The notes under the pieces were generated by a model that did not search any database, was not told where the DNA came from, and was given only the letters and a program-made list of their open reading frames with translations. Both the position numbers and the translations under genes were made by a program. A stretch of DNA of 64,000 bases from a virus. The stretch is taken from IMG/VR virus record IMGVR_UViG_3300045988_123906; one strand, given 5' to 3'. Shown here piece by piece: positions 16,789 to 56,797 of this stretch (its first letter is position 1; each line of letters starts with the position of its first letter).

Positions 16789-17973
16789 TTAAATTACTAT
16801 CTTTGCTGGCTTCTCCAGCTTGACATCGTACAGACATTCTAGGCCGCTGTCATCGATTACAGCCACTGCCTGTTGCGGCACATCATTCTTGCGCAGTCCA
16901 ATTGCGTAGGAATCGCTGCCACAAACGCAGCCGCTCTCAATAACCTTCGCACCATGCACCGTTGTCATGCCGTTTGTGTGGCGGTGACCAAGGAACGCCA
17001 TGTCAATTGGCTGCTTCACCATCAGTGTCAGGTGCTCAACGACGTTAGCAGGGGAGTCTTTATCTCCATGTGCGTACATCACAAGACTATTCCTAGCTTT
17101 AAAGCCACCAAAGGTCGGATCGAGCTTCTCTGTTTTAATATCAATGCCAGCCAGATTTTGCAGCCGTGCCTTCATATAGAACGGGATCAGTGCCTCAAGT
17201 TCATCGCCTGCTACCTGATCCTCTTTGCTGGGGAATACTCGTGAATGATTGCCACTCACAGAATACACGTCAATATGCTGGCATACCTCGTACAGTGTAG
17301 CAACAAAATTACTTACCAGCTCTGCAGCCGTCATAACCTGCTCAATGCTGTTTTCATTGTTCTGCACGCGGGTATTAACATGGATATGCCCATTGATCAG
17401 GTCGCCCAACAGCAGCACATGAATCTTTTCGGCTGTATGTCGCGCTACGATATTGAACACCTGTGCAGCATAACTCTCAAGCCTAGCTTTCAAGATATCT
17501 TTGTTGAACTTATTCCACGCCGAATCAATACCCGCGCCAGCATGTAAATCAGACAAACACACAATCACATCGTGACCGCTGTCTTCGTATTGCACAACAT
17601 TCAGAAAGTTGTCAGGGTTATACGGAGCAACGTTCTTCAGAATCAATTCCTTAACGGATTCGGCACGGGCAACATCGCGATACACTTTGTTTGCTGCATT
17701 GCGTTCATCTTGTAATTTGATCTTTTCAATCTTCAGTCGCTGTAGTTCATCCTGGATTGTTTCTTCGTTGGCGTGATCAATAGCGTAGTCATAACCATCT
17801 TTCCACGACTTATAGGTCTTGCGGTATCTGCATTCGCCATAGTCTGAGCCGGTTGCTTCATTCAGCAGTTCTGCTGCCTGATTCTAAGTCAGCTTACGTT
17901 CGCTGCATGCCTCACCAATCCGCATCATATATTCATCAAAGGTCTCGCCGTCCGCTTTCTTAAATTCGTCCAT
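16789..17973 (-). CDS. calcineurin-like metallophosphoesterase, with in-frame TAG (17884-17886)
   Basis: Motifs present: LSDLHAG, GDLINGH, SGNH and GHRH. The track ORF starts at an internal GTG. The same frame runs up to ATG 17973, 8 nt from the upstream stop, through one TAG at codon 30. Confidence 0.8.
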
Positions 17974-17981
17974 GCGCCACC

Positions 17982-18179
17982 TCAGATCTCAAAATTGGTG
18001 TTGGTACGCTGGGTGCGGTTCAGTTCGCGTAGCGCCTCTTCTGCCTCGGGATTGCCAGGCAGCTGAGTCAGCACAGACTTGATTTCCTCCGCATACCAGT
18101 GATGAACGGTACGAGTGATATGGACACCGGGAATAACCTTACGCAGATACTCTGCCTCACGCTTAGTAATTTCAACCAT
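17982..18179 (-). CDS. hypothetical protein
   Basis: 65-aa ORF with a TGA stop, tightly packed. Confidence 0.55.
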   Translation of the reverse strand: MVEITKREAEYLRKVIPGVHITRTVHHWYAEEIKSVLTQLPGNPEAEEALRELNRTQRTNTNFEI

Positions 18180-18255
18180 TATAATAAATCTCCTTTGTAA
18201 TTTATAATCGAAAGGGAAATATACAACACCCTTTCATATATTAAGAACTTAAAGT

Positions 18256-19068
18256 TCATTTCGGTCGTTTGTTTCGATTCGCATTCTTTTTCGCTAGACG
18301 TGCCTGTTCTTTCTTTGCCGCACATCCTTTGCAATATCTGCTGGCATTTGGCTTTTCTGAGTGATACTGTTCGCCACACACGATGCAATAACATTCCTTC
18401 GGGTCAAACAACTCTCGCACTATGGCGCTTAGATTCAGCCGATTGTTTTCAAGCATCACATTGAACGTGTACGCAATCGTGTCATTCTTATCAAGGGCAA
18501 AATTTGGGTACTGGTATAAGCATCCAATGTCGTCAGTGCCGGTTCTGTTCAGCAGGTGATAGTCGTCAGAGATCTCTTTCATGCCCCGCACTGTATTATA
18601 GCCGTCGTCCTAGTTCTTCCCAGCGCAATACATGATCTCTGTCTGCTCTTCAAAGCAGCCACCAAAACGTTTCATCTTAAACTCAGTATCCAAGGCAAAG
18701 GTATCACTTCCATACAGTCGGCAGAAGAATATTACCCCAAACAGAACACGTAATTGTGCGTAGTTGATATGATACTTTTGGCGCGCCTCTGTGATATAGT
18801 CCAGATCTTTCTGATAAAGCACAACTTGATGTACGTCAAGTATGGGCGCGTTATTTTTACGGCCTCTGCTGAACGTCTGGATCAAGTGGCTACGGTCATA
18901 GCTGACAGACTCAGGATTTTTCATCCGCTCATAATAAATGGTGGCGCATTCAATAGGGGAGAGGGAGGTTCGCTTCAGCAGATTTCGCAGCATCAGATTT
19001 GACTCGTGATAGTCCTGCCAATGATCGAGCAGCATATTCTCATTACAGTAGAAAGTTGTATATGCCAT
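18256..19068 (-). CDS. hypothetical protein with C-terminal zinc ribbon, with in-frame TAG (18610-18612)
   Basis: Track ORFs 18610..19068 and 18256..18591 are in the same frame, separated only by TAG and 6 codons. The C-terminus contains CIVCGE...YCKGCAAKK. Confidence 0.6.
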
Positions 19069-19608: not shown

Positions 19609-22152
19609 TTATTTCACCATCGCTTCATATATTTTCGGTTCAGCCAGACTATATCGCTGGCCAAGATATTCGTACTCGCCGTTCGGATCGTGAACTGGCA
19701 GCTGAACAGGAACCGGCTTGATATTTTCGACCACACCAGCGCCGGCCATGTGCCACAAGAACTTCTTGAATTTATTGGGATACTTCTCATAGCAAAGCAC
19801 TACAAGAATATTCGCCAGCTCTCTCACATCAGGACACACCAGCTTGCACTTGTTACGGTAGACATTGTAGATCGCCTGCCAGTTCGTTTCATATGTCTTG
19901 GCCTCTTCTTTGGTAATACGCGACTCAATGTCCTTATGATATAATTGCCAGTTGCGGCATTTCTTTTCGAACTCAAGTTGTTCCTTACGGCATTTGTTGA
20001 AGTCCAAGAAAATGGCCTCGATCTCGTCAAAGACTGCCTGGTCATAGGAGACCTCTGGGTCGTACATGATATGCCAATCAAAGCTGCCTGCGGGCTCTTT
20101 GCGCCACCGTACACCGCGCTCCCAACGCTCCAGACTCATGCAAAGCAGGTTCATATTGCTATGTGCCTTGCTGAGATTATGTAAACGTGCGTAGTAAGGA
20201 CCTGCATACTTCATAAAGTAGGGTAGGGGACGACCATAAGCTGCTACATTACGCGGGATCGGATACAGAACACCGGTTTTAGCATAATCGATAGCTTTTC
20301 CGTTGCAGATGCTCAAAAGCGAAATATTATCGTGATAAAGCTTCTTGGTCTTTTCCATGGTCGGAACCTTATTATGGTATGCAGTTGCGTAATTTGAAAT
20401 CTCGCCAATAGAACTCTTCAATCCGCGAATGGTGCAGGCGACTTTGTTCTTCACAATATCACATTCTGCTAACGCAGTGATCTTATCTTCAACATCGAGT
20501 GTAATAGGGATATTATCAGGAACACCACTCATCATCAGTGGATTATCGATGATTAGAACCAGGTCGCCGTCAAAATCAGAACCATTGAGTCTGGAAGCCA
20601 CGATGGATTTGATATTTACCATAGCAACATTCTGAAGATGGCTGCAGTATTTGCGGGTGTATTCGTTGTCTACAGCCTTGGCCTTTACATGCTCGGCAAC
20701 AGAAATATGGGGATTGCGCTCAATTAAGCGGTTTCCCTCCATCACACCACGACGATCAAAGCTGTAGAATTCACCGTCTTCAAGGCAGCCAGTCACAGGA
20801 AGGCCACCAATATGCTGTAACAGTGCAATAAGGTCAGGGGCCCAGAACTTAAAAGTAGCATTCATCCAAAGCCGACCGCACTTCATCTCATTGCGATATT
20901 TATCAAGCAGCGAGTGAATATAATCTTTGATTGCCGGCTCTTTTACCATCACTGGGTTGCGCAGGGCAGCAGCCATGTAATGATTCATTGGGTCGTTGTT
21001 CTCAGCAAGTAAACCAAGGAAGCAGTATGTATAAATCGGGTCGCCTTTGACAATATTCTGATACCAGGTAATGCTGTCATCAGCTAGATGCTTAAAAGAC
21101 TCATTGTCGAGCTGTAGATCTTGAATAACCTGATAGTTACTACGGGTGGAAAGCGGTTCTTGTTCAAGCGTAAAGTTCCATTTAGCCACACCAAGGCAGT
21201 TATCGTACTTCTTGAAAAGTTCCCAGTATCTCTCCCAGTCAGAATAGGTACCAGTTTTCTTGAAATATTTGAGACCCTTGTACATTGAAGCAGTAATAAT
21301 AATCATTGGTTCGCTGCCAGGTGTTACATCATATTCCATGCCCCAGATGTCCTTGATTTTTGTAACGCCGTTCTCTTCAAAAAAACGCTCGTAATCAATC
21401 TCGTGTAAACAACCCTTGATATATGGAGCACGCAGAATCAAACTGTTCATCCGTTCAGAAGTGCCGATACGCTTTTCAAATTCGCGCATGATACTTGGGT
21501 GGCAGATTCCAGCACCATCAAATGCGTTGATATCAATGTCGACTGTTTTTGTGGCGATATCTTTCTGAGTCCAAGTACGTTCTTTACCTGTTTTGCGGTC
21601 ATTAAACGTCACAGTCTTGTCTACCAGATACTCGATCCACTGATTTTTGATCGTTGTCATATAGTCTGGAACAACAATCATTTTGGGGTACCAGTTCTCC
21701 AGGCAGTGGCAGCTGCTCAGCATCAAACCACGATAAGCATAATACTTACTCAGGACGGTTGGTGTTTCAGAAAAATCTAGTTCCATGCTTACACGGCGGT
21801 CGAGTTCAGGGTAGATATGTCGCTCAACAAAACTTAACATGCTCTGACGGACCATACTTGCACTACGTTCACAGAACAGATATTTTTGGCCATTAAATTT
21901 GAATCCATGCTCTACTAAATGATCGATAGCATCAGGGTGGTTCTGGCCGCCTGTTGCATCAACAAAGATAATAAAGCGCTGGAATTTATTCTAATCATCG
22001 GAAATGAGCCGAATCTGTCTAAACAGCATATCGTCACCCTGCAAGACCTTATACTGCTCCATCTCTTCTGGTGTCAGTTTGAAATTATAGTTATGAGAAA
22101 CGATATAATTCAAGTTAAATTTTAGTACGCTATATAATGGTGGACTAAACAA
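19609..22152 (-). CDS. single-subunit double-psi-beta-barrel RNA polymerase (YonO / cellular RdRP-like), with in-frame TAG (21991-21993)
   Basis: Contains NGSDFDGD, which matches the universal beta-prime NADFDGD / DxDGD catalytic loop. The track ORF gives 748 aa. The frame continues upstream through one TAG to a TTG at 22152, 9 nt after GGAG, giving about 847 aa, the size I recall for YonO. Confidence 0.7.
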
Positions 22153-23006: not shown

Positions 23007-23276
23007 TTATATCAGCGGCTCACAAATACATGGTCCTGTCAGTAAATCTATTTTATGTTCAAGTTCTGCGATCCGAGCTTGTAATTGATCAATCGCAGTT
23101 TGATACGAGGTTGTTGTTGCTCTTATAGTATCTATACGTTCTACTGCAAAATGCGACAGAGTATTTGCTTCATCGACTTTGATAATCGCATGGTTTACTG
23201 TATCGTGCATAGAAAATAAATGATTATCTATTTCTTCAACTCTTACAGTTAGCTCTTGTTCATCCAATATTTTCAT
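23007..23276 (-). CDS. CxC-tail family member M7 (coiled-coil body; tail GPCICEPLI)
   Basis: 89-aa ORF with a degenerate version of the shared C-terminal tail. Confidence 0.6.
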   Translation of the reverse strand: MKILDEQELTVRVEEIDNHLFSMHDTVNHAIIKVDEANTLSHFAVERIDTIRATTTSYQTAIDQLQARIAELEHKIDLLTGPCICEPLI

Positions 23277-23281
23277 CTCCT

Positions 23282-23596
23282 TTACAATAGACTTTCACAA
23301 TAATATTCACTATTTGTATTGATATCTCCATTTATCAGTTTAAGATATCGTCTGTACATCTGTTCAGCATAAGGCCCAGCAATTTCGAATTCAAATCCGT
23401 TATTTAATAAGAAAAGTCTTACTTTCCTTTTAACTACAAACGTTTCATCTGGTTCTCCATAGCGGCAAACCGTCATATCGTCTTCGTCTATTTGAAATCT
23501 GAAATTATCAAATTCTATTTTACAATCATTTTCAATTTCGATATGTAATTGTAGGGCTGCTTGTTGTTGTACTTCTTCACTGATATATTTTTTCAT
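23282..23596 (-). CDS. CxC-tail family member M6 (tail SEYYCESLL)
   Basis: 104-aa ORF. ATGA overlap with the upstream gene. Confidence 0.65.
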   Translation of the reverse strand: MKKYISEEVQQQAALQLHIEIENDCKIEFDNFRFQIDEDDMTVCRYGEPDETFVVKRKVRLFLLNNGFEFEIAGPYAEQMYRRYLKLINGDINTNSEYYCESLL

Positions 23597-23886
23597 AATA
23601 GACTCTCACAGTAACACTCATTGTGAATAGATACATTGTATTCTTCTTTTGGAAAATTTTTCGATATATAGTCTTTGATAAGCTTTTGTAAAGTTTCATC
23701 AGTAACTATGGTGTTATAATCAACCCATTTGTCGAATTGAATAGTGTGATGTGAATTGCCATGATTTACAGTGTCTATGGTCGATCCATTTTCAAATTGA
23801 ATTCGTACAGGCTGCTTCCAATCTGATGGATATATGTATATCTTATCATCGGGTATCAATAATTGATTGTTCATATCGTGCCTCAT
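23593..23886 (-). CDS. CxC-tail family member M5 (tail NECYCESLL)
   Basis: Start taken at the ATGA overlap with the upstream stop (MRHDMNNQ...). Confidence 0.65.
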   Translation of the reverse strand: MRHDMNNQLLIPDDKIYIYPSDWKQPVRIQFENGSTIDTVNHGNSHHTIQFDKWVDYNTIVTDETLQKLIKDYISKNFPKEEYNVSIHNECYCESLL

Positions 23887-24209
23887 AATAGTGATTCGCA
23901 GACACACTCGTTTTCTGCCTCGACAACATTAGGAATTGCAATCGTCCACAGTGTGTCGTGTCCCATTCCATAGTATTTTACTTCCGCTTGAACTTCACGC
24001 TGGTTACCATTTGCGTCAATGTAAGATACGATTTCGTTTGTGGTTCGCAGTGGTTTATCGCTTGGCAGAGCCCATGTGAATCCATCTTTCGCCCAGTCAA
24101 AAGTAAACTCGCCACTGTTGATATCATCGGGATATCTGTACTTACACCATCGCAACGTGCGATCATCATGCAGCGTATCAAATCTATTCATTGTTGGCAC
24201 CTCTGTCAT
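23883..24209 (-). CDS. CxC-tail family member M4 (tail NECVCESLL)
   Basis: 108-aa ORF. ATGA overlap upstream. Confidence 0.65.
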   Translation of the reverse strand: MTEVPTMNRFDTLHDDRTLRWCKYRYPDDINSGEFTFDWAKDGFTWALPSDKPLRTTNEIVSYIDANGNQREVQAEVKYYGMGHDTLWTIAIPNVVEAENECVCESLL

Positions 24210-24670
24210 ACCAAGCTGTCACACACGCATTCATCCCGCTGCACTTCTTTAGGCGCAGTTGGCGGTGTAAACTCAACCTCGCTCGGATCGTATGTCATCA
24301 AAGAACAGGCATCGATTCGCACATTCGGGAAGCACATGAACTTAAAGCATCGGTCAATATCATCAACAACAAGTGGCTTATCCTCTAAGTGCAATCCACG
24401 ATAATTATCGGGAGGACAAGTAGTTGTTATCACGTGAATACTGTATTCTCCGCGAGCTCTGCTTTGTAAATCCACTATAAGGCATTGATGATCAACCCTA
24501 TACCCCTAATATTGAATATCAAGGTTCCTTGCGATTTCCTTGATATAGTCCTGTGCACATAATATAGCCGTCCCGCCCATCGGCACCAAGATGTTACAGT
24601 TGTTCTTAACAGCGTATTCGCAGATCGCATATGTACGTCCACCGCCTCGTGGCGCTAATATTCTTTCCAT
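24206..24670 (-). CDS. CxC-tail family member M3 (tail DECVCDSLV), with in-frame TAG (24506-24508)
   Basis: ATG 24670 follows a GGAGGGTG RBS. It has 54 codons, TAG, then 100 codons. The N-terminus begins MERILAPRGGGRTYA. Confidence 0.6.
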
Positions 24671-24682
24671 ATTTCACCCTCC

Positions 24683-25255
24683 TTACAATAGCGGTCTGCA
24701 CACACATTCGCACTGTTGATCAGCCAGAGCATCACGGATTACATCGTCCAGACATTCTGGTGTGATGGAGAACTGCTGGAACAAGTCAAACTGATTGTTG
24801 TTCATCAAATAGTTCATGGTGATCCGCCGCATTTTGTTCTCTGAAATATACTTCGCATCCTCTTCACCATACAGCCGCACGATCTCCTTGAAAAATTCAA
24901 AAGTATCGGTCAGCGCCAGCCTATCGTCAAAATAGAATGTCGTATATTGTGCGCCGAATTTATCTTTATTGAATATATTCCAAAAATCTTCGGGTGATTT
25001 ACAGATTGCGGTCTCCTTGCGATGCTTTTGCACAGTATCCATGCGTTCATACCAGTCACACACTGTGTCATAGATCGATGGCCTTACGAATAAAACGCGC
25101 ATTATTTCTTCTCCTTCAAAAACTGTTTTTGAGTTATGATATTGCGCTCCATATTTCAACGTCCTGAGTTGGTTCCTTTTCTTATGGAGTCTAGCACCAG
25201 ATGCATTTGCTAAGGCTCTATATGTGTTAATCAAATTATTTATTCTGTCTGTCAT
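24683..25255 (-). CDS. CxC-tail family member M2 (tail QCECVCRPLL)
   Basis: Start taken at the ATGA overlap (MTDRINN...). The body is 190 aa. Confidence 0.65.
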   Translation of the reverse strand: MTDRINNLINTYRALANASGARLHKKRNQLRTLKYGAQYHNSKTVFEGEEIMRVLFVRPSIYDTVCDWYERMDTVQKHRKETAICKSPEDFWNIFNKDKFGAQYTTFYFDDRLALTDTFEFFKEIVRLYGEEDAKYISENKMRRITMNYLMNNNQFDLFQQFSITPECLDDVIRDALADQQCECVCRPLL

Positions 25256-25488
25256 AATAAGCTCTCGCATATACATTCGTTTTCTGATTCTGGATAGTAG
25301 GGGATTGGATAACTGTATTGAGCCGCACGTCGATCTTCAGAGCAATTTCCTGGACGAAGTATATGTCGCGGATGAAAAGATAAGTCATGACCAAGCTCCC
25401 AGCGAAATCCTTGATAATCGAACCAGGTAGTATCTTGATTTTTGCTTAGAGTATCATAGAGATTGTTCATCACTTTATCGATTGTCAT
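25252..25488 (-). CDS. CxC-tail family member M1 (tail NECICESLL)
   Basis: 78-aa ORF. ATGA overlap upstream. Confidence 0.65.
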   Translation of the reverse strand: MTIDKVMNNLYDTLSKNQDTTWFDYQGFRWELGHDLSFHPRHILRPGNCSEDRRAAQYSYPIPYYPESENECICESLL

Positions 25489-29373: not shown

Positions 29374-29496
29374 CACGCAATAGTCGGATACCCTTTCGGG
29401 GTCGCACCGTTCAAAGCGGCCCCTTTCCAGCTCCGCAATAGGGGCGTAGCGCCTTAGAGTGTGGCGCATTGTAGACACTCAGAAAAGAGGTTCACT

Positions 29497-40687: not shown

Positions 40688-40766
40688 CCGGGTGTGGCGA
40701 AGTTGGTATCGCGCTAGGTTTGGGACCTAGAGATTTTCGCCCGTTCGAGTCGGGTCACCCGGACCA
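40688..40766 (+). tRNA. tRNA-Pro (anticodon TGG)
   Basis: Cloverleaf by eye: acceptor CCGGGTG/CACCCGG, D arm GCGA-AGTTGGTA-TCGC, anticodon arm CTAGG-TTTGGGA-CCTAG, T arm GCCCG-TTCGAGT-CGGGT, encoded CCA. The variable region is unusually long at about 8 nt. Confidence 0.65.
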
Positions 40767-40789
40767 CAGCATAGGGCTTTATCCTTTCT

Positions 40790-41319
40790 CCCTGTGCAAA
40801 AAAAGCGAAGTTTTTTCTCTTTCACTTTTCCTTTTTCTTCGCTCGTGGCTGAAAATGCCGGGCAGGTACGATAATCCTGCTTTGATATGGAGCTGATGGT
40901 CGTACAACAGTTCGATTCTGTTGGGCTCCAGCTAGGTTCGATGCAGCGGCGTAGTGTAGTACAAAGCTGCTGGGGTGGCGCAATTCCACCGTGGGTGATC
41001 ATACTCCCCCTCTGACACACCCATAACGCTCTGACCGAAAATAATATCCATGATGCAACGGGAGTAGCTACCCGCCACAGTGGATGTGCATGGCTCTATT
41101 ATGAGTAGGCGAATTTGGCACTGCCTGCGAAAGTGGCATAGATGCTCGGTGCCCAGAGTATCGGAGAGTGATTTAAAAGGGCAGCCTTTGAGGATGGACA
41201 CCATAAGAGACCAATTCGCTTATGTGTTGTATCCGCTGACGCGACTGAGTATTGCGCAAACTTTGTAAGCCGCTTGCTCCTCGCCGATGCCGTTACATGG
41301 TTAAATCCTCCTCTCTTAT
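40790..41319 (+). ncRNA. candidate large structured noncoding region between tRNAs (class unknown)
   Basis: About 530 nt with no credible ORF. It contains an acceptor+T-arm minihelix (GGAGCTG...AACAG-TTCGATT-CTGTT-GGGCTCCA, about 40891-40933). It also has nested helices such as GGCAC-TGCC-TGCGAAAG-TGGCA...GTGCC (41117-41153). Confidence 0.3.
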
Positions 41320-41410
41320 GCCGGTATCGCTCAGCGGCTAGAGCACTGGGTTTATACCCCTTGGTCCAGATAAGACAGAGGCGCGGGTTCGAGTCCTGCT
41401 ACCGGCACCA
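41320..41410 (+). tRNA. tRNA-like gene with aberrant anticodon region
   Basis: The acceptor (GCCGGTA/TACCGGC), D arm (GCTC-AGCGGCTA-GAGC), T arm (GCGGG-TTCGAGT-CCTGC) and CCA are all good. The 37 nt between the D and T arms cannot be folded into a 5-bp/7-nt anticodon arm. Confidence 0.45.
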
Positions 41411-41443
41411 TTTTTAGTAACATTTTGAAAGAAGGTATGAATC

Positions 41444-41698
41444 ATGGCAAATCTGAATATCAAAGAAATCGTTGAATGGATGATCGAAGAAGCGAAAAAT
41501 AAGGCTTCCGATAGCATCGCAATCATTGATGAAGGAGAAATCGTTAAAAAGTTCGGAGTGGAGTCTGGATGGCTTCAGAGCCATGGTCCAGAAATTTATC
41601 ACGAGTGCGATCAGCACTCAGAAGTTTTGGACTCTTTGATTTACACTGGAAATGATAGAGATTATTGGTCTATTCAGCTTACTATTAACAAGGAGTAA
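41444..41698 (+). CDS. hypothetical protein
   Basis: 84-aa ORF. Confidence 0.6.
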   Translation: MANLNIKEIVEWMIEEAKNKASDSIAIIDEGEIVKKFGVESGWLQSHGPEIYHECDQHSEVLDSLIYTGNDRDYWSIQLTINKE

Positions 41699-41704
41699 AT
41701 CAAA

Positions 41705-42376
41705 ATGGCTGATAAATATCTCAGTATTATCACGAACTTCGGGTGCCACTACAGCTGCCCTGAGTGTATCGTCCGCAATAATAAGCTCAAGATGACGCCG
41801 ACAGGGGAGTATTCTTCTTACGCTCCGCTGTGGCAAGTTCTTCATAACGAATGCAAAGACTGCAACTGGGTATCTGTGTCTGGTGGCGGCGATCCGTTGT
41901 ATCACTGGTGGGAGCATCAGGCATGGTGGCTTGGCTTTTTCGAGATGTGCCAACGCTCTGGACGCAGGACCGAACTGCATACCAGTTACTTCGACGCAGA
42001 AAACAATCACGAGATTATGTTGTTTCCGTTTGGTAAGTTCGACCGTGTTGTATATCACCTGCATACGACAGATGAGATGGACAATGTTTGTCGTCGAGGC
42101 AACGAAATCGTTCGTGTGGTCTTTGTTGTGGACGACGATATGACTGAGGACGAAATCAATGGAATCGCTGATTATGTCGAAACGTCTAACGAGATCGACG
42201 AGCTTACCTTCCGGCAGCGTGTGGACGAGCACTACAAAGAAACTTACCATCTGCACGACTTCCTACTGGCTGGTCATCAGAAACGCTGGTGGTATGTCAC
42301 CCAGTGCGATTACAATACCTACTTCCATAACGGTAAGCTGTATACCAAGTATACTGATATCTTTGATAAGGAGTGA
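41705..42376 (+). CDS. small radical SAM enzyme
   Basis: The CX3CX2C cluster motif is present near the N-terminus (NFGCHYSCPEC), plus a GGE-like SAM motif (VSVSGGGDPLY). The 223-aa size is that of an activase or QueE-class enzyme, with no SPASM-type extension. Confidence 0.65.
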   Translation: MADKYLSIITNFGCHYSCPECIVRNNKLKMTPTGEYSSYAPLWQVLHNECKDCNWVSVSGGGDPLYHWWEHQAWWLGFFEMCQRSGRRTELHTSYFDAENNHEIMLFPFGKFDRVVYHLHTTDEMDNVCRRGNEIVRVVFVVDDDMTEDEINGIADYVETSNEIDELTFRQRVDEHYKETYHLHDFLLAGHQKRWWYVTQCDYNTYFHNGKLYTKYTDIFDKE

Positions 42377-42690
42377 TTCAGATGTACATCGTCGTAAGCG
42401 ATTACACCAACGAGAAAGCTGATATCTACAAGTCGGTAAGTATCGATAAAGCATTCAAATCAAGAGACGATGCGATTGCTTTTGCCGCTGTCAGCTTTCA
42501 GTGTTTTCTCAATGGGATGCCTGAAGATGAGGCCGCTCGGTATGAAGATGCAGTGAAAGTTGACACTGAATCATACGCTGATTTTTGCGGATGCGAGTTG
42601 AACCCATATCCTGAGTATGTTATCGGTGCGGCAGTCGGCGATGGTGAAGATAATCACATGTACTACATGGTGTTTGAAGTAGAGGAGTGA
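42373..42690 (+). CDS. hypothetical acidic protein
   Basis: 105-aa ORF with a 4-nt overlap with the radical SAM gene. Confidence 0.6.
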   Translation: MIQMYIVVSDYTNEKADIYKSVSIDKAFKSRDDAIAFAAVSFQCFLNGMPEDEAARYEDAVKVDTESYADFCGCELNPYPEYVIGAAVGDGEDNHMYYMVFEVEE

Positions 42691-42730
42691 CCTGCGCAAG
42701 CAGTGGCGGCTCGGAAAGACGAGCGTATAT

Positions 42731-42810
42731 GGCCCCATGGCGAAATTGGCACACGCGGCAAGTTCAAACCTTGCTTATTGTTCCCGGTTCAAATCCGGGT
42801 GGGGCTACCA
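42731..42810 (+). tRNA. tRNA with anticodon CAA (Leu codon UUG) but a short variable region
   Basis: Acceptor GGCCCCA/TGGGGCT, anticodon arm GCAAG-TTCAAAC-CTTGC, T arm CCCGG-TTCAAAT-CCGGG, encoded CCA. The variable region is about 8 nt rather than a class II arm. Confidence 0.55.
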
Positions 42811-42897
42811 CCGGCTCGATCGAGTCGGGAGCTTATTGGGTGAAACGGTTTGGCAAATCGGAAAGACGGTTGACTGCTGGACAGACAGCTTTGATAT

Positions 42898-42986
42898 GCC
42901 GCTATGGTGAAATCAGGCTAGACACATCGAACTTAAGATTCGACGGTAGTAATATCATCTGGGTTCGAATCCCAGTAGCGGTACCA
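42898..42986 (+). tRNA. tRNA-Leu (anticodon TAA), class II
   Basis: Acceptor GCCGCTA/TAGCGGT, 3-bp D stem, anticodon arm TCGAA-CTTAAGA-TTCGA, about 15-nt variable arm, T arm CTGGG-TTCGAAT-CCCAG, encoded CCA. Confidence 0.7.
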
Positions 42987-43074
42987 CCCCGAAAGGGGTA
43001 ACATAATAACTCTTGTCAATTATTCTCGGCTCGCTCGAAAGGGTGCAATTGGCCTTGTAAGCCGAGTATCTTAT

Positions 43075-43146
43075 GCGATTGTAGCTCAGTTGGTAGAGCA
43101 GCAGGCTGAATGCGCGTCGGTGGTTCAAGTCCATCCAATCGCACCA
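43075..43146 (+). tRNA. tRNA-like gene, Phe(GAA)-like but with a 4-nt-short anticodon arm
   Basis: The acceptor (GCGATTG/CAATCGC), D arm (GCTC-AGTTGGTA-GAGC), T arm and CCA are all good. The anticodon region GCAGGCTGAATGC looks like GCAGG-CTGAAAA-CCTGC with 4 nt missing. It may be a pseudogene. Confidence 0.4.
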
Positions 43147-43279
43147 GGGTTCCTGTCTTTTTGGTATGTTACTCAGCAGGGACCTTTTACCTCATTCTTG
43201 TTATTCCCGGCTCTTTTAATACGATGCTTCGGTCTATATCGTATCGAAAGCAACAAGGCTTTGTAAGCCGGGTTTATAT

Positions 43280-43354
43280 GCAGCGGTCGTATAACGGTGA
43301 ATGTGCCAGCCTTCCAAGCTGGAGATGTGGGTTCGACTCCCATTCGCTGCTCCA
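43280..43354 (+). tRNA. tRNA-Gly (anticodon TCC)
   Basis: Acceptor GCAGCGG/TCGCTGC, anticodon arm CCAGC-CTTCCAA-GCTGG, T arm GTGGG-TTCGACT-CCCAT, encoded CCA. Confidence 0.7.
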
Positions 43355-43543
43355 TGCCGCAAGGCAAGACAGCTTTGCCCATTAGGTCTCTAACAAAATG
43401 GGGAATAGGTACATGGTGGTAAAAGTACGATCAATAAAATAGCCACGACTTCCTTGTTGCGCCCTAATGTTTCGGATATTGTGGTCCGAAATGGAAGTTG
43501 TCCTGCTTGGAGAATCGGGAGAGCAGGTGTACCTAATTTATAT

Positions 43544-43624
43544 GCGGCTATGGTGGAATAGGCAGACACGCCAAATTTAGGATCTGGTCTTCGGGTGAGG
43601 GTTCAAGTCCCTCTAGCCGCACCA
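43544..43624 (+). tRNA. tRNA with anticodon TAG (Leu codon CUA), 9-nt variable region
   Basis: Acceptor GCGGCTA/TAGCCGC, anticodon arm CCAAA-TTTAGGA-TCTGG (one A-C mismatch), T arm GAGGG-TTCAAGT-CCCTC, encoded CCA. This is not a CUA suppressor. Confidence 0.55.
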
Positions 43625-44400: not shown

Positions 44401-44649
44401 ATGGACGAGAGAAAATTCTGTATCGGTGATCGCGTAAGGCTTGAGTCTCCGTGGGGTCCTGATGATCCCAATGAGGGTAAAGAGGGAATTGTTGTTGGGT
44501 ATACAGAAGATACCGATTGTCTTCAAGTGCAGCTCTGCGATGGGTACACATGGAGCAAGCCAGAATTTCGCCTGATCGAGCACCTGCATGATGATTGGTG
44601 GGCACCTGTAGAGTCAACCAGTGAATGCCGCTGCGAGTCTCTGCTTTAA
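44401..44649 (+). CDS. CxC-tail family member P8 (SH3-like-looking body; tail SECRCESLL)
   Basis: 82-aa ORF, a solitary copy far from both arrays. Confidence 0.65.
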   Translation: MDERKFCIGDRVRLESPWGPDDPNEGKEGIVVGYTEDTDCLQVQLCDGYTWSKPEFRLIEHLHDDWWAPVESTSECRCESLL

Positions 44650-44886: not shown

Positions 44887-45318
44887 ATGAAGGCAACTGT
44901 TAAGTACAACAACGTTTTCGTCACTTCCGCTTACGACATCGAGACCCTGAAGAAGGTCAAGAAGTTCCGTCCCGAGGCTCTGGTTCTGTACAAGGGCGAG
45001 GGCAAGGAGAAGGAGCCTGTCTGCGCTATCGGTGTCAGCGGTTCTGCTTCTGCCAATGAGATGGGCGTGACTTTCGCAAAGAATTCTGTCACCACTCCCA
45101 AGGTCGCTACCATGAGCATCGAGCTGCCCAACGGCAAGACCACCGTCGAGGAGATTAACGAGTTCGTTCGTGAGAAGCTGGGTCTGGCCATCGTGAACTG
45201 CACCAAGATCGAGGAGCAGATCGCCGAGGCTATGAGCTCTATCGCTGCTGATGAGGCCGCTATGAACGCTGCTATCACCATCGAGAACGACGCTGAGCCT
45301 GAGGCCGCCGCTGAGTAA
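44887..45318 (+). CDS. abundant hypothetical protein (possible PRTRC-E-like position)
   Basis: 143-aa ORF with capsid-like GC3 codon bias and an acidic Ala-rich C-terminus. Confidence 0.65.
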   Translation: MKATVKYNNVFVTSAYDIETLKKVKKFRPEALVLYKGEGKEKEPVCAIGVSGSASANEMGVTFAKNSVTTPKVATMSIELPNGKTTVEEINEFVREKLGLAIVNCTKIEEQIAEAMSSIAADEAAMNAAITIENDAEPEAAAE

Positions 45319-45470: not shown

Positions 45471-45701
45471 ATGCTGAAGATCACTGTGGGTACCAACACC
45501 AACCGTAAGACTGTCATGGCTACTGAGGACACTACCCTGCGTCAGTGCCTGGAGGAGAACGATATCAACTACTCTGCTGGTCAGACCTCTCTGGATGGCT
45601 GTGTTCTGCAGCCTGGCGACATGGATAAGACCTTTGCCGATATGCACGTTACCGAGAAGGCTTATCTGGTCTGTGTTCAGAAGATGGACAACGCCCGTTA
45701 A
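45471..45701 (+). CDS. ubiquitin-like (beta-grasp) small protein candidate
   Basis: Its 76 aa equal ubiquitin in length, and the strand-helix-strand outline is compatible (MLKITVGT..RKTVMATEDTTLRQCLEEN..). It is codon-biased and lies two genes upstream of the JAB and E1-like genes. It has no C-terminal GG (ends KMDNAR). Confidence 0.45.
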   Translation: MLKITVGTNTNRKTVMATEDTTLRQCLEENDINYSAGQTSLDGCVLQPGDMDKTFADMHVTEKAYLVCVQKMDNAR

Positions 45702-45887: not shown

Positions 45888-47363
45888 ATGGCATTCACTG
45901 GTTTGCTGACGAAGCTCGGCTCGAACGAATGCAACGAATTTTTCTCTGACATCAAGAGCAGGAACAAATTCGAAACCGAAGATAACACTGTCCTGACCGT
46001 TCTCCGGGCAGTGATGAACGAGGAGCGGCTGGCGACCTTTACCGTTGATCCCGAGAACAAGGGCATCATGCAGTCTCTGGTGGTCGAGAACGAGATCCGG
46101 CTTCCGGACGATGAGAAGCTGACAGCAGCCTATTACGCTGGTGAGCGTGGTCCGTTCACAAAGATCAAGCTCGGTCTGTATTTCCATTTCATCCCCAACA
46201 AGAAAGCAGCCGATTACATCAAGCAGGTGAAAATGTTCGACGAGGACTATAAGAAGGCGGGCTGGGTTCGTCTTGAGGATGTCTCTCTGTATGTCGATCG
46301 CAGCGGTGACGCTCTGGTCTATCAGAACGAAACCAAGCAGGCGACTATGGTGTTCGCTCCTTCGCCCAAGAGAATCCAGGTCATGCAGATGATGATGAGC
46401 TGTCTGCCTCGTCTGCTTCCGTGGGCATTCAAGGATCACCCGGCAACCAGGGATGAACTCGATCTGCTGAAGATGCTGGCTGAGCAGAAGTATGACAAGT
46501 TCAATGCGGCAATCGACAAGATCTGTGCAGCTTATGACTTCTACGGCAAGAAAGTCGAAAGCATGCTCAAGGGATTCTGCAGTCAGAACTTCACCCGCTC
46601 GATCCACGATCAGGAAGAACGTGTCCGCCGGGCAGAGAACAACGTCAACGATTATATGAGCAGCGCCCGCAATGCCATGAAGCAGGTGGATGAAGAGCAG
46701 ATGAAGCTTCTGGTGCTCCGGAATCGTGCCTGCAACTCTGGAGACGATGAGAAGGAGCTGGTCGATTTCTTCAAGGCGAACAAATCTCTTATCGCTCTGG
46801 ATAAGTCCGGCAATCAGCTGTGGGTCGGCGTGAACTGCTATCTGAATGACTACAACGAAGATATCTTTAAGCAGTATGTCGAAAAGCAGGATAAGATGTC
46901 CAGCTACATCTACGAGGAGAGCCCGTATGATATGGATCTCACCAAGAAGCTGTTCCTGGCTATCTGGAAAGAGCACCGGTTCAATCTGCGTGTCTACTGC
47001 GAGTGGATTGTCTATGATGACTGCCGCGTCGAAGCCGTCAGAAGCACTAACATGAATCACCGAGAAGACCTGATGAAGAATCGTTTTCCTCAGCCGCATA
47101 TCGACCGGTTTACCTGTTACGGCGGCTATCGCGGTATGCTTCAGGATCTGGCTCTCCGCCGTGATTACATCGGCGTTTTGTCTACTCTGGTGACTTCTTC
47201 TTCCTATATCAACTGGACGGATTCTACGGTCGTCGAATGGATGATGGAAAAGCTGTTCGGCGATTATAGTAATCGGAAGTGTCTGGAAGATAAGGATGGT
47301 AATCTCTACACCATCAAACAGGTGGTTGAGATCCTGGAAAACGAAAGCAGAGAAACGGCATAA
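45888..47363 (+). CDS. large hypothetical protein of the Ubl-JAB-E1 cassette
   Basis: ATG 45888 follows AAGGAGG. 491 aa with no motif recognised by eye. The antisense ORF 45852..47099 is a shadow. Confidence 0.65.
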   Translation: MAFTGLLTKLGSNECNEFFSDIKSRNKFETEDNTVLTVLRAVMNEERLATFTVDPENKGIMQSLVVENEIRLPDDEKLTAAYYAGERGPFTKIKLGLYFHFIPNKKAADYIKQVKMFDEDYKKAGWVRLEDVSLYVDRSGDALVYQNETKQATMVFAPSPKRIQVMQMMMSCLPRLLPWAFKDHPATRDELDLLKMLAEQKYDKFNAAIDKICAAYDFYGKKVESMLKGFCSQNFTRSIHDQEERVRRAENNVNDYMSSARNAMKQVDEEQMKLLVLRNRACNSGDDEKELVDFFKANKSLIALDKSGNQLWVGVNCYLNDYNEDIFKQYVEKQDKMSSYIYEESPYDMDLTKKLFLAIWKEHRFNLRVYCEWIVYDDCRVEAVRSTNMNHREDLMKNRFPQPHIDRFTCYGGYRGMLQDLALRRDYIGVLSTLVTSSSYINWTDSTVVEWMMEKLFGDYSNRKCLEDKDGNLYTIKQVVEILENESRETA

Positions 47364-47376
47364 GGAGGTTTGAAGT

Positions 47377-48354
47377 ATGCAGCCGGTTAAGATGAATGAC
47401 GAACTGATCCAGGGAATTTTGCAGGAGTTCTATGCACAGGCTTCTGCGTTGGGTAATCTGCAGGCGGATAAGTTCTCCTTTAACAAGAATTTTTCCAAGC
47501 CTGCCAAGGACGCAGTCGAGGTGAATTTCACTCTGGAAGCTTATCACGAGATGTGTGCCCTGATCGATCACTTCAGTACCGAGGTCGCCTGGCACGGTCT
47601 GGTGAATCGCATTGATAAGACTCACTTCCAAATCACCAAGATCCTGGTTTATCCGCAGCAGGTCACGGGCGCAACAGTGAATACGGACCAGGAAAAGTAT
47701 ACGACCTGGCTGTATGAGCTGGACGATGAATCCTTTAATACGCTGCGGTTCCAGGGCCACAGTCATGTGAACATGAGCACTTCTCCCAGCGGTGTGGATA
47801 TGCAGAATCAGTGGGATCTCATTGATACTCTGAGCTCTGAGGATTACTACGTCTTTATGATCTGGAACAAGCGGCGGGAGTATAACGTCCGTGTTGTGGA
47901 CATGGCGGACAATGTCATCTACAGCGGCGATGATGTCAAGGTGACGATTGGAGAGGCCGATACGAAAGGGTTTCTCGAACAGGCGGAAGCGCTCGTCCAA
48001 AAGCCGGTCACAACCACATACAGCGGCTACAACAATGGCTACAGCGGCAACTACAATGGTGCAGCTTACTCCGGCAACTACAGCGCGGGTACAGCAGCTT
48101 ATCAGGGAGGCGCGTTCGTTGGTAACACAAGCTCCGCAGCCGCGTCCACGAAAACAAAAGCAGAAACGAAACCGGCAGCCACGACGAACCCGGCGCTGAA
48201 AACTGTCACGGGTGGAGCCGCCCCTAAGATCGATTCAGCCAAGAGCAAGGGAAGCGAATCCAATCTGATGAAGTATTATCAGGAGAATCCGAACGACCTG
48301 ATGAACAATTGGAATTCGAGCTGCTATCCCTACGCTGACGCATTCCAGGACTAA
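47377..48354 (+). CDS. JAB/MPN (JAMM) metalloprotease with Tyr/Gly/Asn-rich C-terminal region
   Basis: The JAMM motif H-x-H-x7-S-x2-D is present as HSHVNMSTSPSGVD, with an upstream Glu (EVAWHG). The C-terminus is low complexity (YSGYNNGYSGNYNGAAYSGNYSAG). Confidence 0.7.
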   Translation: MQPVKMNDELIQGILQEFYAQASALGNLQADKFSFNKNFSKPAKDAVEVNFTLEAYHEMCALIDHFSTEVAWHGLVNRIDKTHFQITKILVYPQQVTGATVNTDQEKYTTWLYELDDESFNTLRFQGHSHVNMSTSPSGVDMQNQWDLIDTLSSEDYYVFMIWNKRREYNVRVVDMADNVIYSGDDVKVTIGEADTKGFLEQAEALVQKPVTTTYSGYNNGYSGNYNGAAYSGNYSAGTAAYQGGAFVGNTSSAAASTKTKAETKPAATTNPALKTVTGGAAPKIDSAKSKGSESNLMKYYQENPNDLMNNWNSSCYPYADAFQD

Positions 48355-48368
48355 GAAAGGAAACAACA

Positions 48369-49049
48369 ATGGATCTGAGCAAAATCGAAATGGTGTTTGA
48401 CCCTGCGTCTGTTAAGGGTCGCATTCATATCATCGGCTGTGGTTCGGTCGGCTCTACTGTGGCTGAACTGCTGGCACGATACGGTCTGACCAAGTTCACT
48501 CTGTGGGATATGGACTTTGTCGAACCCAAGAATATCGTCAACCAGATGTTCTTCCAGCAGGATATCGCCCATCCCAAGGTGGAAGCTGTGGGGAACATTC
48601 TGTGCAATGTGAATCCTGATATCAAAGAGGATCTGGTTCTGATGCCCAATGGCTGGCAGGGCGAAACCGTCAAGGGTTATGTGTTCCTGGCCGTGGACAG
48701 CATCGAGATCCGCAAGCAGTTCCTGGAGAAGAATAAGTACAATCCTGAGCTGCTCGGTGTGTTCGATATCCGCACTGGCCTGTATGATGCACAGTGCTGG
48801 TCGGCCGATTGGAAGGATCGCAAGCAGATCGACAATCTGAAGAACTCCATGAACTTCACTCACGAGGAAGCAAAGGTAAGTACGCCGGTGTCTGCATGTG
48901 GCATTGTTCAGGGTGTTGCACCGACCGTTCGTTTCATCTGCTGTCTGGCGGTTACGAACTTTATCAATTTCGTGGGAGGCAACCAGCTGAAGAAGCAGAT
49001 CGTTGCAACCCCGTTCATTCTGGGTGAAGAGAGCGTCATGGCGTTCTGA
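48369..49049 (+). CDS. ThiF/E1-like adenylyltransferase
   Basis: Rossmann motif IIGCGSVGS followed by WDMDFVEPKN (the E1 D-x-D-x-V-x3-N pattern). 226 aa. Confidence 0.7.
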   Translation: MDLSKIEMVFDPASVKGRIHIIGCGSVGSTVAELLARYGLTKFTLWDMDFVEPKNIVNQMFFQQDIAHPKVEAVGNILCNVNPDIKEDLVLMPNGWQGETVKGYVFLAVDSIEIRKQFLEKNKYNPELLGVFDIRTGLYDAQCWSADWKDRKQIDNLKNSMNFTHEEAKVSTPVSACGIVQGVAPTVRFICCLAVTNFINFVGGNQLKKQIVATPFILGEESVMAF

Positions 49050-49097
49050 TAAAATCGTAAATAAAAAAATCGTGATGAATAGTTGTTTTTATAAACA

Positions 49098-49329
49098 GCG
49101 CACTTAGGCCAAGCCAAGTGTATCGAATTGTTAAGAAGAGGGGGTCCTCCCCCTGTGGCATCAACATTGCAAAACTAAACGCGTGCCGCCGGATGACGGT
49201 GCTACCACAGGGTTCGAAACGATCTTCCTGGGTCACCCGAATGCGGTTATATAGCCAATTTCAGCATCCAATCATGATCGGGACCTCCTACAGCATGCAT
49301 TATAGCCTCAAGAAACCCATTTAGATCAC
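49098..49329 (+). ncRNA. repeated noncoding element C (immediately upstream of the RT gene)
   Basis: The 5' box is GCGCACTTAGGCCAAGCC..TCGAATTGTTAAGA. This is followed by a GGGGG-TCCT-CCCCC hairpin. The 3' box ATTTAGATCAC lies 23 nt before the RT ATG. Confidence 0.45.
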
Positions 49330-49352
49330 GATGAAATCATAAAGGAGAAACA

Positions 49353-50585
49353 ATGTACATTACATATCTGAATCCTCCTAAGACTCGGCAGATCACTTTT
49401 GATGAGATCCTTGCCGGTGTCCAGAATGTAGAAGCACTGCACTATGGCGGCAGCAACACATCTACAATGACCGTGTGCCGCAATGACTTAACCGCCAAAC
49501 TTCGCGCTATCACAAATGTTCCTGAGATGATCGAGAAGTTGGTGGACTACAACGTGAAATATGCGACGCTTGAATCCAGCGATATCCCGAGTCACTATTC
49601 TCACTTTGAGATTCCAAAGAAATCTGGTGGCTGGCGACCCATTGATGCGCCAGATGAAACTCTTTCTGATGCACTGATCGAGCTGCGGGAACTGCTGAAG
49701 AGCTTTATGATCGCAGATTATCACACGAATGCTTTCGCATATATTCCCAATCGCAGCTTTATCGATGCGGTCCGTAAGCATCAGGCAGGTCACAATAAAA
49801 CCGTCGTTGATGAGGCGACCGGCATGAAAAAGGTCGTCAATTATCAGAATCATTGGGCGGTCAAGTTCGACTTCCATGGTTTCTTTCCCAGTACGACACC
49901 GGATTTTCTGCTCGGCATGATGAGTGTGATCTATCCATTTGCTCTGATCATGCGGGATGCACATGGCCGAGATGAACTGGCAAAGGCGGTCAACCTGTGC
50001 TTTCTTCGCAACGGCCTGCCGCAGGGAACTCCCATCAGTCCGTGGCTTACCAATGTGATGATGATTCCGTTTGACCACTGTATCACTCGCAAGCTGTGCT
50101 ATGGCTACAAAGCAAAGGACGGCATCGATCGCGAGTTTACTTTCACACGATATGCAGATGATATCCTCATCAGCTGTTATCATCACTTTGACCCGATGGA
50201 AATTCAGCAGATCATCATTGATGCGTTGAACTTCTTTCATGCGCCGTTTACTCTGAACGAAACGAAAACGCATTACGGCAACCGGCACTCCAGCAAGAAC
50301 TGGTGTCTCGGCTTGATGTGGAATAAGGACAATCAGATCACGGTTGGCTGGCGCAATCTTAAAATGTTCCGTTCGGCTATGACGAACTATATCGATACAA
50401 AGCAGCATGGCAGGACCTGGGAGCTGGAAGATCTGCAAAAGTTCAATGGCAAGCTCAACTATTATCACATGGTCGAGCCTGAGGTGATCGACGAGCTGGT
50501 TCGTCGTTACAATGCAAAGTTCGGCACTGATATTATTGCGATGCTCAAAGAAGATCTTCGTCCCAAAGAGGGCGTTGTTGCATAA
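49353..50585 (+). CDS. reverse transcriptase (retron/UG/Abi-like, not DGR-like)
   Basis: RT motifs present: IPKKSGGWRPIDAP, KFDFHGFFPS, GLPQGTPISPWLTN, YADDILIS and NETKT. 410 aa with no endonuclease domain seen. Confidence 0.85.
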   Translation: MYITYLNPPKTRQITFDEILAGVQNVEALHYGGSNTSTMTVCRNDLTAKLRAITNVPEMIEKLVDYNVKYATLESSDIPSHYSHFEIPKKSGGWRPIDAPDETLSDALIELRELLKSFMIADYHTNAFAYIPNRSFIDAVRKHQAGHNKTVVDEATGMKKVVNYQNHWAVKFDFHGFFPSTTPDFLLGMMSVIYPFALIMRDAHGRDELAKAVNLCFLRNGLPQGTPISPWLTNVMMIPFDHCITRKLCYGYKAKDGIDREFTFTRYADDILISCYHHFDPMEIQQIIIDALNFFHAPFTLNETKTHYGNRHSSKNWCLGLMWNKDNQITVGWRNLKMFRSAMTNYIDTKQHGRTWELEDLQKFNGKLNYYHMVEPEVIDELVRRYNAKFGTDIIAMLKEDLRPKEGVVA

Positions 50586-53139: not shown

Positions 53140-53160
53140 TGGAATGGAGGAAGTAGAGCA

Positions 53161-53433: not shown

Positions 53434-53441
53434 GGTGAATT

Positions 53442-53705: not shown

Positions 53706-53721
53706 CATTGTGACATTGGAT

Positions 53722-53871: not shown

Positions 53872-53882
53872 GGAGGCACAAG

Positions 53883-56537: not shown

Positions 56538-56538
56538 T

Positions 56539-56796: not shown

Positions 56797-56797
56797 A

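Follow-up and report, generated by a model that had tools for sequence, protein, structure and literature searches.

We analyzed a stretch of 64,000 nucleotides (the window) from IMG/VR virus record IMGVR_UViG_3300045988_123906, a human gut phage of ~75 kb, in which at least 14 otherwise unrelated small proteins were found to have a common eight-residue ending. The consensus of this tail in the lineage of the window is E-C-x-C-[ED]-[SP]-L-[LVI]. We put at about even the chances that the tail serves, as a disordered C-terminal peptide, to dock these proteins on a common, co-evolving, phage-encoded partner, which would be a product of the adjacent block of genes that encodes p143, a candidate ubiquitin-like protein (Ubl), p510, a JAMM metallopeptidase, an E1-like enzyme of the ThiF family, a reverse transcriptase (RT), and p115.

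The tail is strictly C-terminal and is selected as protein. When all six frames of the window were scanned for C.C[EDR][SP]L[LIV], each of the 11 matches lay directly before a stop codon, and a degenerate DNA pattern for the tail gave 6 window matches compared with 0.00 expected from shuffles. The same DNA pattern was present in at least 118 contig stretches of IMG/VR; among the matches listed, almost all were from the human gut and on contigs of ~70-150 kb, often with several per contig. All fetched loci of related gut-phage contigs together provided 1582 tailed open reading frames (ORFs), 648 of them unique, which formed 21 BLAST families and, after merging by hhalign, at least 12 unrelated groups. 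For a logo set of 463 unique 3' ends of the window (CxC) type, the information content was less than ~1 bit upstream of position -9 and conservation set in sharply at -8, with 3.5 bits for Glu at -8, 4.3 for Cys at -7, 4.3 for Cys at -5, 2.4 for Glu/Asp at -4, 3.7 for Ser/Pro at -3, 4.2 for Leu at -2, and 3.9 for Leu/Val/Ile at -1. All six Ser codons and all six Leu codons were used at these ends, the stops were both TGA and TAA, and synonymous codon variation was observed at the tails of every lineage that was checked at the DNA level (the window clade and lineages A', B, C, and D, described below). This freedom in synonymous codon use places the selection on the protein and not on the DNA, as the original prediction, made from the letters of the window, had proposed. 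The tail is also specific to one phage group. In 596 Gb of bacterial and archaeal genomes from GTDB, the DNA pattern occurred 7 times compared with ~4 times calculated by chance, and only 2 of the 7 matches were tails that end an ORF, both of them on phage-like contigs in Firmicutes metagenome-assembled genomes. Thus, of the outcomes that the original prediction had named as fatal to it (chance frequency in unrelated proteomes, loss from orthologs, or a sequencing artefact), none was found; for instance, the tail was present in 118 of 120 homologs of the second gene of the cluster described next. A full-text literature search for CESLL returned only misspellings of "cells" and no description of the tail.

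Seven of the tailed genes are consecutive on the minus strand, from 25488 to 23007, exactly as the original prediction had listed them. Gene 1 (25252-25488) encodes a 78-residue protein ending in NECICESLL and belongs to body family 5, in which 27 of 27 unique orthologs are tailed. Gene 2 (24683-25255, within an ORF that spans 24683-25276) ends in CECVCRPLL; its start is probably the ATGA-coupled ATG at 25255, giving 190 residues. Gene 3 (24206-24670, a 153-residue gene ending in DECVCDSLV) has an in-frame TAG at 24506-24508 that splits it, and the tail-bearing ORF is 24206-24475. Gene 4 (23883-24209; 108 residues, NECVCESLL) represents body family 7, and gene 5 (23593-23886 within an ORF spanning 23593-23907; 97 residues from an ATGA-coupled start, NECYCESLL) represents family 6. 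Gene 6 (23282-23596; 104 residues, family 8) ends in SEYYCESLL, with Tyr in place of Cys at -7, and gene 7 (23007-23276; 89 residues, family 4) joins a coiled-coil-like body to the tail GPCICEPLI. The earlier statement that most stops overlap the next start held for four of the six junctions, which are ATGA overlaps, whereas a short spacer and a Shine-Dalgarno sequence are present at the remaining two. The seven genes correspond to seven body families, and the claim that their bodies are unrelated was borne out by an all-versus-all hhalign comparison of the 21 tailed body families, which gave no link among the seven. Pairs that reached a probability of at least 50% always combined a window family with a non-window family or with the SH3-like group described below, and the next highest value was 37%. 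Searches of the tailed proteins with Pfam, PHROGs, and PADLOC identified no informative family; phrog_7488 and phrog_17705, to which no function is assigned, matched one SH3-like paralog only.

For the 190-residue product of gene 2, the AlphaFold2 (AF2) model has an alpha/beta core with a predicted local distance difference test score (pLDDT) of ~90. The last helix stops at residue 182, residues 183-190 are coil, and the final 10-residue block has a mean pLDDT of 50; on the basis of this model, the tail of gene 2 is predicted to be an exposed, unstructured extension. A Foldseek search with the model gave weak CheY/flavodoxin-like matches and nothing else. In gene 3, the codon at 24506-24508 is TAG in 13 of 19 related contigs and encodes Tyr in 6, and the part of the gene beyond the TAG, including the tail, remains intact despite the nonsense allele. 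Uninterrupted gene 3 orthologs occur in the related loci L210, L254, L255, and L264, each with the tail of its own lineage. Recoding of TAG was rejected as an explanation of the in-frame codon, since TAG is an ordinary stop elsewhere and no suppressor tRNA was found. Just downstream of the cluster, at 19609-21855 on the minus strand, lies a gene for a 748-residue protein with a DFDGD motif and a match to the Pfam RNA-dependent RNA polymerase family RdRP (PF05183, 2.9e-13), which by these features is assigned as a YonO/QDE-1-like two-barrel RNA polymerase.

The original prediction understated the extent of the tail, having missed seven more carriers on the plus strand as well as the Ubl/E1/JAMM module. 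In the six-frame scan, the further tailed genes had their stops at 44647, 51515, 51799, 53137, 53431, 53869, and 54171, placing them at 44.4 kb and at 51.2-54.2 kb. The gene at 44401-44649 encodes an 82-residue SH3-like protein ending in ECRCESLL; it belongs to family 2, which hhalign links to SH3-like family 0. Two tailed SH3-like paralogs follow at 51251-51517 (ECCCDSIL) and 51526-51801 (ACVCESLL), and an array at 52864-54173 has four tailed copies and one copy without the tail. The tailed copies are at 52864-53139 (ECVCDSLL), 53161-53433 (ECICTPLL), 53722-53871 (ECCCESLL, truncated so that the N-terminal half is missing), and 53847-54173 (ECYCESLL), and the tail-less copy is at 53520-53705. 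A tyrosine recombinase gene located within the SH3-like array region (52046-52867, plus strand; Pfam Phage_integrase, 9.2e-18) has alleles that co-vary with tail type. At the place corresponding to 53520-53871, relatives (L198) have a 688-residue DUF8224 gene and additional SH3-like paralogs, and from this comparison the array of the window seems to carry a deletion. The related phage L359 has an ArdA gene together with an IS605 OrfB/TnpB-like gene inserted in its tailed SH3-like array (1552-2169 and 17168-18271).

SH3-like proteins are the largest group of tail carriers, accounting for 317 of the 648 unique proteins. Each is a single beta-barrel domain of ~90 residues with the motifs YKPGDxVxV and W[TS]D[ED]MF, and the paralogs of one genome are only ~35% identical. 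A profile of the body without the tail matched 2824 cluster representatives across the protein universe. Many of these are tandem repeats in larger proteins, and the multi-domain relatives gave weak Pfam matches to SH3_15 and SH3_12. In the SH3-like bodies, zero columns were both conserved within and distinct between lineages; the tail columns alone behave in this way.

To define the lineages, related loci were fetched by means of homologs of the ThiF-like gene of the window and of p510, and the PhoH region was fetched independently; a search for related loci with P0131 gave no relatives. At least nine lineage-specific tails occur on syntenic arrays of one SH3-like family. The window clade and L160-162 (lineage A) have ECxCxSLL, L163-165 (A') have KP[LF]xC[KRH]SLL, and L209 (A'') has the Cys-free xFxSLL; the tail is [LM]FH[GP]FF in L360, S[IL]x[FYL]xxL[LV] in L359, [KNP]L[LF]F[DEW]D in L358, SF[ED][ED]LF followed by 0-5 residues in L168-172 (B), [RK]KNN[YF][YW] in L180-189 (C; 19 genes within 20 kb), and LPDIW[ED]YI(K) in L190-197 (D). 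The shape common to all variants is hydrophobic/Cys-x-x-hydrophobic-hydrophobic, at or a few residues from the C terminus. Within a genome the tail is uniform. CxC-type tails made up 760 of 764 in lineage A, contig 127729 has xFxSLL on 14 + 7 genes, and ~17-21 tailed genes were present in the sampled parts of relatives. A second array, on the PhoH side and ~20 kb from the module-side array, comprises genes with non-SH3 bodies that are orthologous to the seven cluster genes, and the two arrays had the same variant in each of the 7 genomes that provided both (CxC in 3, single Cys in 3, and Phe in 1). Orthologous bodies (body clusters 1, 3, and 15) change tail along with the lineage. The Cys residues are dispensable, with 97 unique ends having a single Cys and 25 (A'') having Phe at -5, so that Cys and Phe are interchangeable at this position. 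Residue -4 is acidic in A and basic in A'.

The tail type co-segregates with the genes of the adjacent block. Among tail-A genomes compared with comparisons across tail types, the identities were 60-63% versus 40-45% for p510, 62-69% versus 46-52% for the JAMM (JAB) protein, 56-84% versus 31-41% for Ubl, and 63-67% versus 43-52% for p115. Ubl, p510, JAMM, RT, p115, and the integrase (Int) each group the three sampled genomes with the window tail and separate A' and A'' from these and from each other; p143 and ThiF follow tail type less clearly than the rest of the block. Genes elsewhere in the phages behave otherwise. The major capsid protein is 80-87% identical across all tail types (81-87% when compared with that of the window), the head proteins, including the scaffold-like and portal-like ones, are 66-98% identical to those of the window with no grouping by tail type, and PhoH is ~80% identical in every comparison. 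PIN is discordant with tail type, the window being 83% identical to A' and 48% identical to L160. Several candidate receptors were rejected. Between A' and A'', whose tails differ, the YonO-like RNA polymerase has 93% identity, and in L358, where the tail is entirely different, p133 (86% identity) and the AAA ATPase encoded at 54595-55698 (92% identity over the 23% of the protein aligned) stay similar to their window counterparts. The anti-repressor-like p466 was also set aside: its proximity to the arrays of several lineages reflects only the common Bro-N/Ant domain.

The block itself lies on the plus strand. The first gene, p143 (44887-45318), encodes a conserved module protein that in some lineages is fused to the C-terminal side of Ubl, and its profile found no relative in the PDB. 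A MoaE/MoaD/MoeB-like trio of p143, Ubl, and E1 was considered, and this PDB search with p143 gave no support for it. The Ubl candidate (45471-45701, 76 residues) has a conserved end K-x-D-[NGSC]-[AG] followed by 0-3 residues; the endings observed were K-x-D-N-A, or GG, SA, and CA, again with 0-3 variable residues after them. The best match of its profile in the PDB was SAMP2, a weak one, along with PF1061 and ubiquilins/beta-grasp proteins. In L173-L175 and L178 (at ~7.0-7.7 kb), Ubl and p143 form one protein with Ubl as the N-terminal part, an arrangement that recalls the ubiquitin-ribosomal-protein fusions, and L180 has two Ubl copies (6272 and 7190). The fastest-evolving module protein is p510 (45888-47363, ~490 residues), with the invariant motif P403-H404...C410. 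Its AF2 model has a pLDDT of 89; nothing significant was found in Pfam, by sequence profile in the PDB, or with Foldseek against the PDB, and BFVD contained one uncharacterized phage homolog. The JAMM/MPN+ metallopeptidase (47377-48354; PADLOC JAB, 1.2e-4) has the motif E69, H128-S-H130, S138, and D141, invariant over 12 lineages, and the best PDB matches of its profile were all RPN11 (E = 0.12). Residues ~195-300 of this protein form an extended linker of low complexity, enriched in Tyr, Gly, Asn, and Ser; the conserved peptide NSSC[YWL]PY lies at its C terminus.

The E1-like adenylating enzyme of the ThiF family is encoded at 48369-49049 (226 residues; Pfam ThiF, 3.3e-19; PADLOC E1-E2, 1.3e-17), and its relatives in the PDB include UBA5, MccB, TcdA, and MoeB. 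It is the slowest-evolving module protein, with 45-54% identity where p510 has 16-25%, and its gene adjoins tail arrays in all nine sampled tail lineages. The next gene encodes a retron-type RT (49353-50585; Pfam RVT_1, 1.5e-15; PADLOC RT_II-A, 2.5e-37). In the region 49050-50585, the RT is preceded by a 303-nt gene-free stretch that is closed by the inverted repeat AUCGUGAU...AUCACGAU; the stretch may be a retron noncoding RNA, with a fold z-score of only -1.6. The last gene, p115 (50618-50965), is located between the RT and the tail arrays, and its alleles co-vary with tail type. The Ubl, E1, and JAMM proteins resemble the E2-less archaeal sampylation set and the E1/JAB parts of the cyclic oligonucleotide-based antiphage signaling system (CBASS), to which the phage module adds two unassigned proteins and the RT.

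In the reading that we favor, the tail would be an exposed, disordered address peptide at the C terminus of 14 window proteins, many of them small SH3-like binder domains and the others of unrelated folds, all of which would dock on one partner. That partner would change together with the tag, so that a lineage-private variant would appear on all tagged genes at once. A partner that co-evolves with the tag is most likely phage-encoded, and because the tail is swapped in concert on ~17-21 unrelated genes in two distant arrays, a single changing trans-acting receptor is expected. The partner would most likely be found in the hypervariable block from p143 to p115, beside the largest tail-gene arrays, with p510 as the lead candidate, and through the tag a set of small accessory proteins would be brought to a ubiquitin-like machine, as adaptors or as substrates. 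The basis for tying the tag to this machine is that the two are neighbors in all nine sampled tail lineages, together with their co-segregation. The earlier suggestion of a docking motif for a shared host or phage hub thus fits the evidence best, with the hub probably phage-encoded; the constant host clamp that it also allowed is weakened by the different tails of close relatives. Several points weigh against this docking reading. A fast-evolving host target would yield the same pattern. The co-segregation rests on few independent tail-type changes, ~3 among close relatives and a further six in distant lineages. There is physical linkage between the block and the module-side arrays, and the module-side loci were all fetched via module genes, which is an ascertainment bias. 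The assignment of Ubl is weak by sequence (E = 0.02), and p510 has no recognizable fold and no E2 or E3 signature by Pfam, PDB sequences, or Foldseek. Furthermore, in some module lineages (L173-L179) the flanking 10 kb on each side showed no tail array, and therefore the module can work without arrays. A wider proposal, which we offer tentatively and consider doubtful, is that this phage group encodes a minimal ubiquitin-like tagging machine (Ubl, E1-like enzyme, JAMM, and p510) and a rapidly diversifying set of small SH3-like and other binders that plug into it via the lineage-private tag, as a counterpart of F-box/PRANC-type adaptors, and that tag and receptor co-evolve at a pace sufficient to keep co-infecting relatives orthogonal.

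Other explanations of the shared ending were weighed against the same data. The tailed proteins could themselves be substrates of the E1 and JAMM enzymes, with the E1 adenylating the C-terminal carboxylate (as MccB does with MccA and Cap2 with the CD-NTase), the end being ligated or cyclized, and JAMM trimming or reversing the product. The genes for both enzymes adjoin the arrays, the motif is strictly C-terminal, and the 0-5 variable residues after the motif of lineage B resemble a trimmed Ubl extension; however, in every lineage the module has a candidate Ubl of its own, whose conserved end consists of small residues (K-x-D-N-A or GG), whereas the tails end in bulky residues (LL, LV, LI, FF, YY, YW, or LFDD) without a small Gly/Ala/Asn end. 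In addition, the tail variants have no nucleophile in common, and E1 is conserved best among the module proteins, whereas a protein that receives such variable tails would be expected to diverge. We consider direct modification unlikely. A hub of the host as the docking partner (for instance the sliding clamp, partners of the single-stranded DNA-binding protein (SSB), RNA polymerase, or a Clp/Lon unfoldase), with the tail either delivering host-takeover proteins or acting as a degron, appears similarly improbable. The carriers are small accessory genes among anti-defence-like genes, as this reading would have it, and clamp-binding, PCNA-interacting peptide (PIP)-like, and SSB-tip motifs as well as ssrA-type degrons have a similar C-terminal shape of hydrophobic-x-x-hydrophobic-hydrophobic, which the tail resembles; but its consensus is unlike QL[SD]LF or LAA, and phages with head genes 80-97% identical and RNA polymerases 93% identical differ in tail (CxC, single Cys, or Phe) on ~20 genes in concert, for which a conserved host hub would offer no explanation. 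The same differences between closely related phages weaken the degradation tag of the original prediction insofar as a constant host degron was meant. Packaging, another of its suggestions, would make the tail a virion cargo-loading signal that brings small proteins into the capsid for co-injection. Unrelated cargo with a common short terminal peptide is the logic of encapsulin cargo-loading peptides and of the T4 capsid-targeting sequence, and, by the gene map, a head module of the HK97 type lies upstream in the phage. Tail type is not mirrored by the major capsid protein or by the scaffold-like and portal-like ones, zero structural proteins were tailed in the six-frame window scan, and the arrays adjoin the Ubl module in 9 of 9 sampled tail lineages, results that make packaging decidedly improbable.

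Chemistry of the cysteines was a further possibility, whether as half of a Zn(Cys)4 site formed between molecules, a switch based on redox state or metal, or a thiolactone between Cys -5 and the C terminus like that of the autoinducing peptides. By the definition of the type, all 463 unique CxC-type ends have Cys at -7 and -5, and Cys-x4-COOH has the ring size of the staphylococcal autoinducing peptides. The sister-lineage orthologs with one Cys or with Phe at -5, the 29 lineage A ends that have Tyr in place of one Cys, and the distant lineages that are entirely Cys-free nevertheless make it extremely unlikely that such chemistry explains the tail, and no AgrB-like processing gene was found in Pfam scans of the proteins submitted. 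Cysteine chemistry is at most a lineage-specific extra, and the originally suggested Zn(Cys)4 half-site or Cys/Ser modification is disfavored as the conserved function. It is also very unlikely that the SH3-like bodies are themselves the receptors, with tails binding the grooves of paralogs so as to chain the proteins together and recruit the non-SH3 tailed ones. SH3-like domains typically bind short peptides and theirs is by far the largest tail-carrying family, but no column of the body has a lineage signature and the paralogs of one genome have diverged to the low identity noted above. Finally, a feature at the level of the nucleic acid (a site of recombination, a signal for translational coupling, or an artefact of frameshifting or assembly) is effectively already refuted. 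The ATGA overlap at four of the six cluster junctions does fix the last codon as NTA; however, codons are synonymously free (AGY and TCN for Ser, six for Leu), stops are TGA or TAA, no DNA repeat extends across the tails, the same tails occur in more than 100 independent contigs, and other lineages have wholly different nucleotides at the same place. No variable region or template repeat of a diversity-generating retroelement and no integron-like DNA repeat was found behind the shared ends.

Known systems provide partial parallels. The hub-docking C-terminal motifs (beta-clamp QL[SD]LF, the gp45-binding tails of T4 gp43, gp33, and gp55, and the SSB tip DDDIPF) are likewise short disordered ends with a terminal hydrophobic pair on unrelated folds. 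By contrast with these, the phage tail changes in concert among close relatives and has ~14-21 accessory carriers per genome, and its logo (N-E-C-x-C-[ED]-[SP]-L-L) lacks the Gln anchor of QL[SD]LF or Qxx[LIM]xx[FY][FY], with only the terminal hydrophobic pair in common. The ssrA-type degrons are also portable tags with nonpolar residues at the extreme C terminus, but a constant motif would be expected for a conserved host protease, whereas at least nine variants occur here, three of them among near-identical backbones (80-97% for backbone genes). The cargo-loading peptides of encapsulins and the capsid-targeting sequence of T4 share with the tail the placement of a short terminal peptide on unrelated proteins, where one surface of a shell or scaffold recognizes it; they differ in that here the head proteins do not co-vary and the arrays lie among accessory and anti-defence-like genes, away from the head genes. 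CBASS Cap2/Cap3 with the CD-NTase, MccB/MccA, and the archaeal SAMP/UbaA/JAMM1 system resemble the phage locus in having an E1-like enzyme and a JAMM protein beside proteins with a conserved C-terminal tail, and are unlike it in view of the bulky hydrophobic tail ends, the separate Ubl, and the contrast between a slow-evolving E1 and hypervariable tails. Poxvirus Ank/PRANC proteins, with a C-terminal F-box-like element, and the BC-box/SOCS-box families similarly comprise many paralogs in which a variable body is joined to a conserved short C-terminal element, beside a ubiquitin-type machine. This analogy is one of logic only: there is no relation in sequence or fold, the phage machine is self-encoded and minimal, and no tailed protein had a Pfam match indicating F-box or BC-box homology.

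If the tag is a docking signal, many unannotated phage proteins would fall into one functional class that is recognizable by a simple rule. In the window this class would include at least 14 genes, ~15% of the window genes by a rough ORF count, and in metagenomes hundreds of protein families. The 8-mer tag peptide would be a ready bait for finding the receptor. The tag would link its carriers to a phage-encoded Ubl/E1/JAMM module of a kind for which full-text literature searches, covering a phage Ubl/E1/JAB/RT module and phage ubiquitin-like systems, returned nothing relevant. Concerted, lineage-private switching of the tag, with the reversed charge at -4 and Phe in place of Cys at -5, would provide a clear case from nature of co-evolution between a peptide and its receptor, and the lineages could be a source of orthogonal peptide-tag/receptor pairs.

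Several other features of the window were recorded. On the plus strand at 55710-58749, a gene resembling phosphoribosyl pyrophosphate (PRPP) synthetase (55710-56537) is followed by NAMPT (56738-58276) and a Macro domain protein (58258-58749). This set, which adjoins the AAA/nSTAND3 ATPase gene at 54595-55698, looks like an NAD+ reconstitution kit for counter-defence. A RAGATH-5 RNA was identified with Rfam at 29384-29436 on the plus strand (52.1 bits compared with a gathering score of 50). Seven tRNA genes cluster on the plus strand at 40688-43621. Six are Pro, Ile-UAU, Leu (three genes), and Gly; the other, at 43075-43143, was detected with Rfam alone and is probably Phe. The protein of 223 residues encoded at 41705-42376 on the plus strand has a CxxxCxxC radical-SAM-like motif, with no Pfam match at E<=0.01, and is 79-91% identical across lineages.

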